DNA of 64,000 bases from an uncultured Mycoplasmatota bacterium (lineage in GTDB: Bacteria; Bacillota_I; Bacilli_A; RF39; UBA660): NCBI GenBank assembly GCA_900547225.1, contig URFW01000001.1, forward strand, positions 128,456 to 192,455, given 5' to 3'. Numbering within the stretch: the first letter of the stretch is position 1; every line of letters starts with the position of its first letter. This document shows, piece after piece, positions 58,817-62,332 of the stretch. The translations under genes were made by a program, and so were the position numbers. The notes under the pieces were generated by a model. It worked only from the letters and a program-made list of their open reading frames with translations. It ran no database searches and had not been told where the DNA came from.

Positions 58817-58886
58817 AAGTGTCATAAAACGACACTTTTTTTATTTTTGATGTTTTATTATATAAAACTAAAAAAGGAGAGAGTTT
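58817..58886 (+). repeat. Copy A of the conserved ~70-bp upstream cassette (hairpin gtgtcataaaacgacac plus T-run, then conserved RBS region)
   Basis: Near-identical sequence recurs at 60109-60178 and 61599-61666, each ending in aaaaaaggagagagtttATG. Confidence 0.8.
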
Positions 58887-59711
58887 ATGAATGAACTAAA
58901 AGAATGCACAGAAAAAATGTTTGAGGATATAAAACATATAGATGAAGAAGGTAATGAATATTGGCTAGCAAGAGAATTGCAAATTGCTTTAGATTATAAA
59001 AAATGGCAAAAGTTTATAAATGTAATAGAAAATGCAAAAATAGCTTGTGAACAAAGTAATTTTATAATTGAAGACCATATTACCCAAGTGGGTAAAATGG
59101 TTGATATTGGATCAGGAGCAAAAAGAAAACAGGTTGATTATAAATTATCAAGATATGCTTGTTATTTAATTGCACAAAATGGTGATTCAAGAAAAAAGAC
59201 AATAGCTCTTGCTCAAACTTATTTTGCAATCCAAACTAGAAAACAAGAATTATCTGAAAAAGAGTATTCAATGTTAACTGAAGATGAAAAAAGATTCTAC
59301 CAAAGAAACTTAACTAGAAAAGGAAATTATTCTTTAAATATGGTTGCAAGAAATGTAGGTGTTAGAAACTTTGATAAATTTCATAATGCTGGATATAAAG
59401 GATTATATGGTGGTGAAACTGCAAATGATATAGCAAGAAGAAAGAAATTAAGATATAGAGAAGACATTCTAGATAATATGGGAAGTGAAGAATTAGCGGC
59501 CAACCTTTTTCGTATAACTCAAACTGAATCAAAATTAAAAAGAGATAATATATCTAGTGAAAATGATGCTAATGAAACTCATTATAATATTGGAAAAAAT
59601 ATTAGGAAAGTAATTGCCAAAAATGGTGGAACTATGCCTGAAAATCTTCCTACTCCTGAAAAAAGCTTAAAAGAATTAGAAAAAGAAAAAAAATTAATAG
59701 TTAGTAAATAA
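58887..59711 (+). CDS. DinD (DNA-damage-inducible protein D)-family protein, paralog 1
   Basis: 274 aa. N-terminal FEDIKHIDEEGNEYWLAREL and conserved QTYFAIQTRKQELSEKEYSMLTEDEKRFYQRNL block. Family call is from recalled similarity to E. coli DinD (Bro-N-like N-terminus), not a search. Confidence 0.55.
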   Translation: MNELKECTEKMFEDIKHIDEEGNEYWLARELQIALDYKKWQKFINVIENAKIACEQSNFIIEDHITQVGKMVDIGSGAKRKQVDYKLSRYACYLIAQNGDSRKKTIALAQTYFAIQTRKQELSEKEYSMLTEDEKRFYQRNLTRKGNYSLNMVARNVGVRNFDKFHNAGYKGLYGGETANDIARRKKLRYREDILDNMGSEELAANLFRITQTESKLKRDNISSENDANETHYNIGKNIRKVIAKNGGTMPENLPTPEKSLKELEKEKKLIVSK

Positions 59712-59721
59712 TGTAATATGT

Positions 59722-60082
59722 TTTAATAGATATCTTAGGATCATTTGTTGGAATACTTATTTATTATAAAATTGAATTATATACAGAAAAGATATTTGAA
59801 GATATAAAGCATATTGATGAATATGGTAATGAATATTGGTATGCTAGAGAACTTGCAAAGAGTTCTTGAATATAAAAATTGGAGAAATTTTAATAGAGTT
59901 ATAGATAAAGCTATAATTTCTGCTAATATAAGTTATCCTAATGAAAATTATTGGGGTGTCGAAGTCAACATCCCAATAAATAGTGGTAAGGGTAAAATTA
60001 AAGATTATAAGCTATCGAGATATGCATGCTATCTTATTGTTCAAAATGGCAATTCGCATATGAAGGTTATTACACTTATTTG
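59722..60082 (+). pseudogene. Composite remnant: vanZ-like 3' end (59722-59778) fused to a frameshifted, truncated dinD-like fragment (59779-60082)
   Basis: 59722-59778 matches the 3' end of the vanZ-like gene at 61480-61540. Downstream matches paralog 3 from codon ~8 onward, with a 1-nt insertion near 59856 and loss of the C-terminal two-thirds. Confidence 0.6.
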
Positions 60083-60108
60083 ATTATGTTGAAATAAAAA
60101 TATTCTTT

Positions 60109-60178
60109 AAGTGTCATAAAACGACACTTTTTTTATTTTTGATGTTTTATTATATAAAACTAAAAAAGGAGAGAGTTT
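60109..60178 (+). repeat. Copy B of the upstream cassette
   Basis: Identical to copy A over about 70 bp. Confidence 0.8.
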
Positions 60179-61006
60179 ATGAATGAACTAAAAGAATGCA
60201 CAGAAAAAATGTTTGAGGATATAAAACATATAGATGAAGAAGGTAATGAATATTGGCTAGCTCGTGAGTTACAAAGTACTTTAGGATATCATCAATGGAG
60301 AAGTATAAATGATTTAATTGTAAGAGCTAAAGTTGCTTGCAAAGAAAGTAAATATAATGTAGATGATCATTTTGCGGTACAACGCAAAATGATAAAATTA
60401 GCAAAAGGTGCAGCAAGAAAAGTAATAGATTATAAATTATCTAGATATGCTTGTTATTTAATTGTAATGAATGGTAATCCTAAAAAAGAAATTATAGCTC
60501 TAGGTCAAACTTATTTTGCAATTCAAACAAGAAAACAAGAATTATCTGAAAAAGAGTATTCAATGTTAACTGAAGATGAAAAAAGATTCTATCAAAGAAA
60601 CTTAACTAAAAAAGGAAATTATTCTTTAAACATGGTTGCAAGGAATGTAGGTGTTAGAAACTTTGATAAATTTCATAATGCTGGATATAAAGGATTATAT
60701 GGTGGTGAGACTGCAAATGATATAGCAAAAAGAAAAAAATTAAGATATAGAGAAGACATTCTAGATAATATGAATGAGGATGAGTTAGTTGCAAATCTTT
60801 TTCGTATTAATCAAACTAAACAAAAGCTTTTAAAAGATAAAGTGCAAGGAGAAAGTAATGCTAGTGATATACATTATGAAGTAGGAAAAAAGGTTAGAAA
60901 AGCAATAAAGGATATTGGTGGAACTATGCCAGAAGATATGCCAACTCCTAAAAAGAGTTTGAAAGAGTTAGAAAAAGAAAATAAAAAATTAATAGTTAGT
61001 AAATGA
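60179..61006 (+). CDS. DinD-family protein, paralog 2
   Basis: 275 aa. First 32 aa identical to paralog 1, divergent residues ~33-95, conserved central block, related C-terminus. Confidence 0.55.
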   Translation: MNELKECTEKMFEDIKHIDEEGNEYWLARELQSTLGYHQWRSINDLIVRAKVACKESKYNVDDHFAVQRKMIKLAKGAARKVIDYKLSRYACYLIVMNGNPKKEIIALGQTYFAIQTRKQELSEKEYSMLTEDEKRFYQRNLTKKGNYSLNMVARNVGVRNFDKFHNAGYKGLYGGETANDIAKRKKLRYREDILDNMNEDELVANLFRINQTKQKLLKDKVQGESNASDIHYEVGKKVRKAIKDIGGTMPEDMPTPKKSLKELEKENKKLIVSK

Positions 61007-61092
61007 TATATTACTTTGTAATAAGTTTACTAAAGTTTATTAAGATGATATAATTTTGTTGTTATTTTAAAGCTAAAAAGGAATAAAGAATT

Positions 61093-61551
61093 ATGAAAAA
61101 AGTATTTAAGTTAATGTTATTAATATTATGGATGATTTTAATATTTTGTTTTTCTAATCAAAGGGCAGATGATTCATCTAAATTAAGTGATGGGGTAATA
61201 GTAAAGGTAGCTAGTATTTTTGTTAAGGATAATTTAACAGATAATAAAAAGGATGAATTAATTGATAAATATACCTTTATAATTAGAAAAACAGCCCATT
61301 TTAGCGTTTATTTAATACTTGGTATACTTTCTATTAATTTATTATCTTCGTTTAATATAAAGCGTATTATTATGCTTTCTAGTCTATTTTGTTTTATATA
61401 TGCTTGTACAGATGAATTCCATCAATTATTTGTTATGGGAAGATCTTGTGAAATACGTGATGTTTTAATAGATACTTTAGGATCATTTGTTGGAATACTT
61501 ATTTATTACAAAATTAAATTATATATAAATAAAAGACAAAAATTAACTTAG
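61093..61551 (+). CDS. VanZ-like family membrane protein
   Basis: RKTAHFSVYLILG and DEFHQLFVMGRSCEIRDVLIDTLGSFVG motifs of the VanZ family. 152 aa. Terminator hairpin aagacaaa.../tttgtctt downstream. Confidence 0.65.
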   Translation: MKKVFKLMLLILWMILIFCFSNQRADDSSKLSDGVIVKVASIFVKDNLTDNKKDELIDKYTFIIRKTAHFSVYLILGILSINLLSSFNIKRIIMLSSLFCFIYACTDEFHQLFVMGRSCEIRDVLIDTLGSFVGILIYYKIKLYINKRQKLT

Positions 61552-61598
61552 TAAGTTATTATTTGTCTTTTTAATGATTAAAATAAAAATATCTTTTA

Positions 61599-61666
61599 AG
61601 TGTCATAAAACGACATTTTTTTATGTTTTATATTTTATTAAATAAAACTAAAAAAGGAGAGAGTTT
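61599..61666 (+). repeat. Copy C of the upstream cassette (slightly diverged)
   Basis: gtgtcataaaacgacat... aaaaaaggagagagtttATG. Shares an additional 20 bp (aaataaaaatat(t)ctttaag) with copy B. Confidence 0.75.
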
Positions 61667-62251
61667 ATGAACGAAATTAAAGAACATACAGAAAAGATAT
61701 TTGAAGATATAAAACATATTGATGAATATGGTAATGAATATTGGAGTGCTAGAGAATTTCAAAGAGTTCTTGAATATAAAAATTGGAGAAATTTTAATAG
61801 AGTTATAGATAAAGCTATAATTTCTGCTAATATAAGTTATCCTAATGAAAATTATTGGGGTGTCGAAGTCAACACCCCAATAAATAGTGGTAAGGGTAAA
61901 ATTGAATATATTAAAGATTATAAACTAATAAGATATGCTTGTTATTTAATAGCACAAAATGGCGATTCAAGAAAAGAAGTAATTGCGCTTGCTCAAACTT
62001 ATTTTGCAATCCAAACCAGAAAACAGGAATTATCAGAAAAAGAATATTCAATGTTAACTGAAGATGAAAAAAGATTCTACCAAAGAAACTTAACTAGAAA
62101 AGGAAATTATTCTTTAAATATGGTTGCAAGAAATGTAGGTGTTAGAAACTTTGATAAATTTCATAATGCTGGATATAAAGGTTTATATAATGGTGAAACT
62201 GCAAATGATATAGCAAAAAGAAAAAAATTAATAGAAAAATCAATTTGTTAA
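61667..62251 (+). CDS. DinD-family protein, paralog 3 (C-terminally truncated, 194 aa)
   Basis: Conserved N-terminal and central blocks, but ends RKKLIEKSIC* where paralogs 1 and 2 continue about 80 aa (RYREDILDNM...). Confidence 0.5.
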   Translation: MNEIKEHTEKIFEDIKHIDEYGNEYWSAREFQRVLEYKNWRNFNRVIDKAIISANISYPNENYWGVEVNTPINSGKGKIEYIKDYKLIRYACYLIAQNGDSRKEVIALAQTYFAIQTRKQELSEKEYSMLTEDEKRFYQRNLTRKGNYSLNMVARNVGVRNFDKFHNAGYKGLYNGETANDIAKRKKLIEKSIC

Positions 62252-62332
62252 ACCGTTTTTTAGTACTCTAGATATTTTTTCTAAAATATGCTATAATTAT
62301 TTAGCTTAATTTAAAGAAAGGAGGGAAATATA

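Follow-up and report, generated by a model that had tools for sequence, protein, structure and literature searches.

The DNA analysed here, referred to as the window, is a stretch of 64,000 nucleotides (nt) from an uncultured Mycoplasmatota bacterium (contig URFW01000001.1 of assembly GCA_900547225.1, positions 128,456 to 192,455), with a G+C content of 26%. Between a gene of the LCP (LytR_cpsA_psr) family and rnj, encoding RNase J, it carries an array of three genes of the DinD family, designated dinD-A, dinD-B and dinD-C (copies A, B and C), together with a vanZ-family gene and remnants of both kinds of gene. The features of this interval were as follows, V1 and V2 being two hypervariable segments of the dinD genes and N the block that precedes V1.

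57408-58814 (+), LCP gene (Pfam PF03816, E 1e-27), the conserved left anchor of the array
58817-58886 (+), cassette A, with the hairpin GTGTC-ATAAAAC-GACAC at 58819-58835, a T-run, an AT-rich leader and the ribosome-binding site (RBS) GGAGAGAG at 58876-58883
58887-59711 (+), dinD-A, 274 amino acids (aa), intact, with V1 of type b (codons ~31-100) and V2 of type a (codons ~196-255)
59718-59790 (+), relic of the 3' end of vanZ, 73 nt, 90% identical to 61460-61532 and joined directly to the truncated dinD unit
59769-60083 (+), truncated dinD pseudogene, with the N block and a C-like V1 (~codon 5 to ~108)
60084-60108 (+), junction sequence, resembling the stretch immediately 5' of cassette C (the further 20 bp common to B and C)
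60109-60178 (+), cassette B, with hairpin, T-run, leader and RBS
60179-61006 (+), dinD-B, 275 aa, intact, with V1 of type c and V2 of type b
61093-61551 (+), complete gene for a vanZ-family membrane protein (PF04892, E 1e-25; NF037970), between B and C
61531-61571, terminator-like inverted repeat belonging to vanZ itself
61597-61666 (+), cassette C, a variant form in which the stem is weaker (GACAT) and the leader has diverged
61667-62251 (+), dinD-C, 194 aa, with V1 of class II (type a) but no V2 or C-terminal helices
62333-63979 (+), rnj (Pfam RNase_J_C and beta-CASP), the conserved right anchor

Open reading frames (ORFs) and Pfam matches confirmed the three same-strand paralogs of 274, 275 and 194 aa that an earlier note on this DNA had placed between the LCP gene and rnj. 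The LCP gene is the final gene of a strain-variable glycan/capsule locus. The position of rnj was the same in the loci of other strains, and its promoter-like site (62269-62297) was kept in all alleles. Because the 73-nt vanZ relic is fused to the truncated dinD pseudogene, vanZ is part of the duplicated unit. The earlier note was incomplete in that both the inclusion of vanZ in the repeat unit and the mosaic hypervariability of the genes had been overlooked.

The widespread SOS gene that encodes DinD was discovered more than 30 years ago and is still poorly understood. The assignment of the paralogs to the DinD family, made in the earlier note, was borne out by profile and sequence comparisons. 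Against the DinD equivalog model NF008573 (NCBIfam; cutoff, 242 bits), copies A and B scored 350.1 and 332.9 bits, with matches colinear over nearly the whole model (positions 4-275 of 288; for A, aa 3-269 aligned with positions 4-274). Copy C scored 209 bits, below the cutoff because its C-terminal third is missing. A Bro-N domain (PF02498; cutoff, 25.6 bits) was found at aa 15-109 in all three, with scores of 39.1, 38.4 and 35.7 bits, and in a tblastn search copy A was 52% identical over aa 12-257 (E 1e-77) to the feature annotated as dinD in an E. coli record. The founding members of the Bro-N domain are the baculovirus repeated ORFs (bro multigene family), a family that resembles the present genes in having this domain and in being repeated, with copy numbers that vary between related genomes through duplication, loss and recombination (PMC3230853). 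The bro genes are, however, viral and dispersed, differ in their C-terminal domains and have no common cassette described for them, whereas the genes here form a chromosomal tandem array. A literature search for Bro-N together with DinD returned nothing useful.

Codon alignment showed that the paralogs are mosaics, in which near-identical blocks alternate with the hypervariable segments V1 and V2. Between A and B, the cassette and the first ~30 codons had 96-100% nucleotide identity, V2 (codons ~196-255) 66% and the 3' end 91-100%; identity was 44-64% in V1 (codons ~31-100) and 93-100% in the middle block, M (codons ~101-195). An exact tract of 153 nt that includes the cassette is common to A and B (58817-58969 = 60109-60261), after which identity falls sharply to 53-70%, and an exact tract of 137 nt within M is common to A and C. 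Such sharp boundaries are a signature of recombination or gene conversion and not of uniform divergence. Nonsynonymous divergence (dN) was 0.38-0.60 in V1 versus 0.03 in M, and synonymous divergence (dS) was 0.6-0.8 versus 0.2-0.37, that is, two to four times higher in V1. Judged by its low dN, M is under strong purifying selection. Of the two variable segments, V1 falls within the Bro-N/winged-helix domain, while V2 is part of the C-terminal helices. Since the copies differ in these two segments and are not equivalent, the dosage amplification that had been suggested for the array was not supported.

The exact LCP and RNase J proteins of the window were present in 95 and 1014 index blocks, respectively, of human-gut metagenome assemblies, and 20 loci of the same species (L001-L020) were retrieved with them. 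A further 30 loci (L103-L132) were found by the cassette sequence. The array occupied the same slot between LCP and rnj in about 50 same-species assemblies. In L001-L020 the interval had eight lengths (2227, 2237, 2518, 2639, 2943, 3030, 3518 and 3520 nt), and in L103-L132 it held one to four full dinD genes and zero to two truncated units. The simplest content was a single dinD without vanZ (L016), and many strains had a single intact dinD gene; the arrangement of the window recurred exactly in L002 and L013 and nearly so in L012 and L018. Exact matches to the proteins of copies C, B and A were found on 86, 23 and 10 contigs, respectively.

Module tiling of these loci showed that V1 and V2 were re-assorted between copies and strains. 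The A-type V2 was joined to other V1 types in L003 and L015, the last copy of L014, a gene of full length with a frameshift, combined a C-type V1 and a B-like V2, and L017 had an A-type V1 within a truncated unit. Seven V1 types and two V2 types were present in the intact genes of the 20 strains, and 15 and 6, respectively, among 148 close homologues. In the latter set, the A-type V1 occurred 26 times with the A-type V2 and 28 times with the B-type V2, the B-type V1 occurred 11 times with the B-type V2 and 7 times with the A-type V2, and several V1 types were themselves mosaics of other V1 types. The variation in interval length and copy number, together with the re-assortment of V1 and V2, indicates, in agreement with the earlier note and by the refuting condition set in it, that the array is dynamic and not an old fixed cluster.

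The largest array was found on one metagenome contig, ERZ773235.637 (L122 and L128), on which the LCP gene was followed by a truncated unit and several full dinD copies. Two units on this contig, 2478 nt apart, had identical 5' ends, which suggests a very recent duplication. In L007-L010 the contigs ended inside the array (at ~12400-12800), which would fit either assembly breaks caused by the repeats or a mixture of arrangements in a single sample.

Decay was also evident at the locus. The earlier note had described one unit as a pseudogene, and such a unit was identified between A and B, at 59769-60083. This segment, which is 89-96% identical to the first third (5' side) of copy C, lacks both a start codon and a cassette and ends at TGA. 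Truncated units in different strains all had a common 3' junction, ...CAAAATGG.ATTC.CATATGAAGG.TATT.CACTT..TTGA, followed by TTATGTTGAAATAAAAATAT..TTT and then by the hairpin. Units with this junction held C-, A- or B-type V1, and their lesions differed, comprising stop codons, deletions of 1 nt and 12 nt, a change of ATG to AAG, or loss of the 5' end. These units are most simply explained by one old truncation event, after which V1 was overwritten through conversion, with neighbouring or imported copies as donors. Copy C, which had been taken as a 3'-truncated gene, does lack the C-terminal third; it is better described as a deletion allele, of about 291 nt, of a full-length last copy, as the corresponding slot is filled by a 275-aa gene in L003, L016 and L017 and a 275-aa member is present in the 90% cluster of C. 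The repeats, the pseudogene, the relics and the deletion allele agree with the proposal of the earlier note that unit duplication was followed by decay.

In the element preceding each paralog, the hairpin GTGTC-ATAAAAC-GACAC is succeeded by a T-run, then by AT-rich sequence and finally by AAAAAAGGAGAGAGTTT and the ATG. Alignment upheld the earlier description of a near-identical element of about 70 nt in front of each gene: cassettes A and B were identical across all 70 nt, and cassette C departed from them at a few sites, among which were an indel and the final base of the stem. The hairpin 19-mer AAGTGTCATAAAACGACAC occurred three times in the window with at most 3 mismatches, against 0.01 occurrences expected. 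The alignment likewise recovered the ~20 nt more (AAATAAAAATAT..TTT) that B and C have in common upstream of the cassette. In a site scan, terminator-like sites were called at the hairpins of cassettes A and B and not at that of C. Folding of the three cassettes gave modest hairpins (z -1.6 to -2.5) and no sign of a riboswitch, and in an Rfam scan of 58600-62450 (E <= 1) the sole match was below threshold and lay in the rnj leader. No Rfam family matched the cassette, and a known RNA element was thereby rejected.

The cassette had been called portable, and this was contradicted by its distribution. All 39 exact copies in the 30 metagenome loci, and all three copies in the window, preceded a dinD N-terminus, while the upstream regions of orthologues in 80 loci of related species (L021-L100) were unrelated to it. 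An independently mobile cassette, like those of integrons or like miniature inverted-repeat transposable elements or repetitive extragenic palindromes, was rejected on the same grounds, the element never standing before unrelated genes in the copies found. The cassette is a co-duplicated terminator, leader and RBS of dinD and not a mobile element. Since vanZ has a terminator-like inverted repeat of its own, the cassette hairpin belongs to the dinD unit, where it most plausibly acts as an upstream insulator.

The related species differed from that of the window in that dinD was usually single-copy (75 of the 80 loci) and stood in heterogeneous neighbourhoods with no synteny to LCP, vanZ or rnj. 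The same mosaic was nevertheless found in the tandem pairs of L027 and L051 (L051, 6001-7746), with nucleotide identities of 44-48% in V1 and 87-93% in the middle block; the two V1 classes that occur together in the window are also those of the L051 pair. In L024 (6001-7161) an N+V1 fragment was followed 58 nt further on by a full dinD gene.

Several comparisons linked the family to mobile elements and to candidate defence systems. Streptococcal elements, either phage satellites or plasmid-like, carry homologues of 53-55% identity at one end, directly beside the integrase (L101, Streptococcus satellite phage Javan743, 3498-4349; L134, 4001-4855), and a Zymomonas plasmid has a further homologue amid toxin-antitoxin genes. 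The PADLOC hidden Markov model PDLC04919 (PDC-S13) was matched with E values of 4e-103 (A), 9e-99 (B) and 1e-61 (C), and the DinD module also matched the N-terminal 271 positions of a 717-position model of a type I specificity subunit. PDC systems are candidates proposed by guilt-by-embedding from type I restriction-modification (RM), BREX or DISARM loci and stand as untested predictions (bioRxiv 10.1101/2024.01.29.577857); a literature search for PDC-S13 found nothing. Despite the strong match, the genes studied here adjoin no RM, BREX or DISARM system. The neighbours of the array across strains were LCP, vanZ, rnj, SirA-like and gyrase-type genes, and no RM genes were seen among the ten largest neighbour clusters of the 80 related loci, which were read by eye without a Pfam or PADLOC scan.

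An AlphaFold2 model of copy A (predicted local distance difference test, pLDDT, 73.8 overall; 87-95 in the C-terminal domain and ~73 in Bro-N) displayed a predicted alpha/beta winged-helix-like N-domain, a linker and a helical bundle. On this model V1 would comprise the helices at 40-56 and 61-64 and the beta-hairpin at 65-87, and V2 the helices at 200-219 and 225-245 of the bundle. The sole strong neighbour of the predicted fold in the PDB was DdrC of Deinococcus (7qvb, 7udi and 8u0g), on which the modelled winged-helix N-domain and C-terminal helical bundle could be superposed in the same domain order. DdrC binds and stabilises DNA breaks (PMC11347143). It is a damage-induced, domain-swapped dimer, and both families are DNA-damage-induced. 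Against these likenesses, DdrC of D. radiodurans has been described as single-copy and Deinococcus-specific, with no homologues outside that genus, and the comparison is one of a model with crystal structures. No match to DdrC was obtained at E <= 10 by phmmer and profile searches of PDB sequences, nor did single-sequence and profile searches of the PDB return any relative; no paper connecting DdrC with DinD was found in the literature. The relationship is a lead and not proof. If the fold match were confirmed, it would offer a testable mechanism for DinD, a dimer binding DNA breaks, and DdrC would no longer be an orphan.

Taken together, we consider it probable that the array is a recombination-driven, strain-variable, diversifying and partly decaying cluster of genuine DinD genes that modulate DNA or RecA, possibly in conflict with mobile elements. 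The repeat unit consists of the terminator-type hairpin, the AT-rich leader, the strong RBS, dinD and, optionally, vanZ, with the cassette probably serving as the gene's own upstream insulator and leader. Unequal homologous recombination multiplied this unit, and the same process keeps remodelling the array. The cassette with the first ~27 codons, the DYKLSRYACYLI/middle block and the 3' end are long, nearly identical substrates for crossover and gene conversion. Between them lie V1, at the core of the winged helix, and V2, in the final two helices, which are re-assorted between copies and strains. The range of one to four full genes, the old truncated N+V1 relic, the V1 of which would have been overwritten several times, and the deletion allele of the last copy are by-products. 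Since E. coli DinD inhibits RecA and the predicted fold is DdrC-like, the proteins may be dimeric modulators that bind DNA or RecA filaments. V1 and V2 could be specificity surfaces, and the PDC-S13 match, the position of homologues as satellite cargo and the V1 classes common across species suggest that their diversity may be maintained through conflict with mobile DNA such as phages. The link of the array to stress or phages that the earlier note raised is likewise an inference.

The locus provides three new leads. A recombining multi-copy dinD array in a very common human-gut bacterium, the confinement of nearly all variation to two short segments that are swapped between copies and strains, and the pairing of the same two V1 classes in other species together point to a specificity-determining surface under diversifying pressure, a pattern typical of conflict systems and not of housekeeping repair. 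The same pattern shows which residues to swap experimentally.

Several observations weigh against this reading. The dN/dS of V1, 0.5-1.0, gives no proof of positive selection. Relics with stop codons and frameshifts are abundant, and the 194-aa deletion form is the commonest at the slot next to rnj (12 of 31 typed genes and the 86 contigs mentioned above); both facts fit weak selection. A promoter scan revealed no convincing sigma-70 promoter within the cassette, so transcription may depend on read-through. No defence or RM genes were found near the array in L001-L020, and the PDC systems to which the genes are matched are themselves untested candidates. The likeness to DdrC comes from an AlphaFold2 model of moderate confidence and lacks sequence-level support.

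The main rival, unlikely in our judgement, is that the array is neutral junk at a recombination hotspot beside the glycan/capsule locus, where duplicates decay and the differences in V1 and V2 reflect relaxed constraint and imported alleles. The adjacent upstream glycan locus is wholly different between strains, contigs often break within the array, dN/dS is not above 1, the deletion allele C is the commonest form, and the abundance of disabled copies, with their stops, frameshifts and deletions, keeps this explanation alive. The LCP protein that separates the two variable regions is nevertheless identical in all strains looked up, and the array and glycan types assort independently (L002 vs L012, and L012 vs L006). 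Neutral decay is also at odds with the strong purifying selection on the middle block, with the recurrence of discrete intact V1 types in many strains, and with the tandem arrangement of the same two V1 classes in another species (L051). If the array had duplicated and decayed neutrally next to a hotspot of capsule switching, it would be ordinary.

The glycan/capsule-type locus itself extends over ~43000-57350 of the window and ends at the LCP gene. Its content differed wholly between L001-L020, in glycosyltransferases, NeuB/CMP-sugar genes, epimerases and pyruvyl transferases. Two strains found through RNase J had no LCP gene at this place. In L020 the end of the glycan locus, upstream of LCP, held an ORF (5644-5955) for a VanZ-family protein of 103 aa; the vanZ product of the window has 152 aa.

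A bolder proposal, which we put forward tentatively and regard as doubtful, is that the array is an immune-like diversification locus. In it the conserved blocks would be recombination handles around the two specificity segments, the truncated N+V1 units would archive alternative V1 types, and mixed dimers would recognise different phage proteins or invading DNAs, with RecA-dependent steps as their point of action. The paralogs, which would be co-expressed, share the invariant middle block, which corresponds to the dimer-forming part of DdrC, and they may form mixed dimers. If the proposal were true, DinD and DdrC would constitute one ancient family of DNA-damage-induced, break-binding proteins.

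A classical SOS role, in which redundant LexA-controlled copies of DinD damp RecA after damage and extra copies raise the dose, appears quite improbable for this species. The family membership and the 52% identity to E. coli DinD speak for it, as does the inhibition of RecA by the E. coli protein (Uranga et al. 2011, as cited in PMC10602874), the only biochemical activity of DinD cited in the part of the literature available to us (PMC10602874). A Cheo-type LexA box, [AG]AAC-N4-GTT[CT], was moreover found between TTGAC and TATAAT, within 150 nt upstream of dinD, in 22 of the 80 related-species orthologues (L026, L038, L054, L059, L074 and 17 others of L021-L100), against a background of 0.9% of control windows. 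To judge from these sites, many gut Firmicutes evidently have dinD under SOS control, like E. coli. The corresponding search in the species of the window was negative: GAAC-N4-GTTC was absent from the window, [AG]AAC-N4-GTT[CT] was absent from every LCP-rnj interval and every cassette of the species, and no LexA was found among the ten window ORFs of 170-250 aa that were scanned. The SOS link proposed for this locus was therefore not substantiated. A reading by eye of the cassette as a LexA-box promoter lacking its left half-site was not relied upon. Redundancy is also contradicted by the 44-64% nucleotide identity of V1, and a dose effect by copy numbers of one to four, with a single intact gene in many strains. 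The array shares with E. coli DinD (PcsA/YicD; NF008573) a full-length colinear match and a Bro-N N-terminus and differs from it in its multi-copy tandem arrangement with strain-dependent copy number, its two re-assorted hypervariable segments, its lack of a LexA box and its position with vanZ between LCP and rnj.

Programmed variation, in which truncated, promoterless N+V1 units archive V1 sequences for copying into expressed genes and so switch specificity within a clonal population, is likewise very unlikely. Such units are widespread, always with the same end junction, and in many cases their V1 type is one that none of the strain's own intact genes has; conserved blocks stand on either side of V1, and an N fragment beside a full gene occurs in another species as well (L024). 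This arrangement recalls the hsdS shufflons of type I RM systems and the pilS-pilE silent cassettes, in which conserved blocks flank variable specificity segments, truncated copies stand beside expressed ones and segments are re-assorted. In contrast to those systems, no site-specific recombinase gene lay within 10 kb of the array, the repeats were all direct and none inverted, and exchange was seen between strains. The truncated copies here are disabled, with relics bearing stops, frameshifts or missing start codons inside the very segment that would be donated.

That the genes are the remnant of a prophage or phage satellite, with dinD as antirepressor-like Bro-N cargo left by an integrated element, is extremely unlikely, for although the proteins match PHROG 8036 (a family of unknown function; E 3e-94), homologues adjoin the integrase of streptococcal satellites and serine recombinases lie near dinD in 6 of the 80 related loci, the LCP-rnj interval of every strain was free of integrase genes, att-like repeats and other phage genes, the array is bordered throughout by syntenic housekeeping genes, and the same slot is occupied throughout the ~50 assemblies.

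A 32-nt near-perfect palindrome, TTATTGGGGTGT-CGAAGTCA-ACACCCCAATAA, was also noticed at 61852-61883, within the coding sequence of the C-type V1. It recurs with one mismatch in the C-type V1 relic at 59948-59979 and has a terminator-like score on the minus strand.

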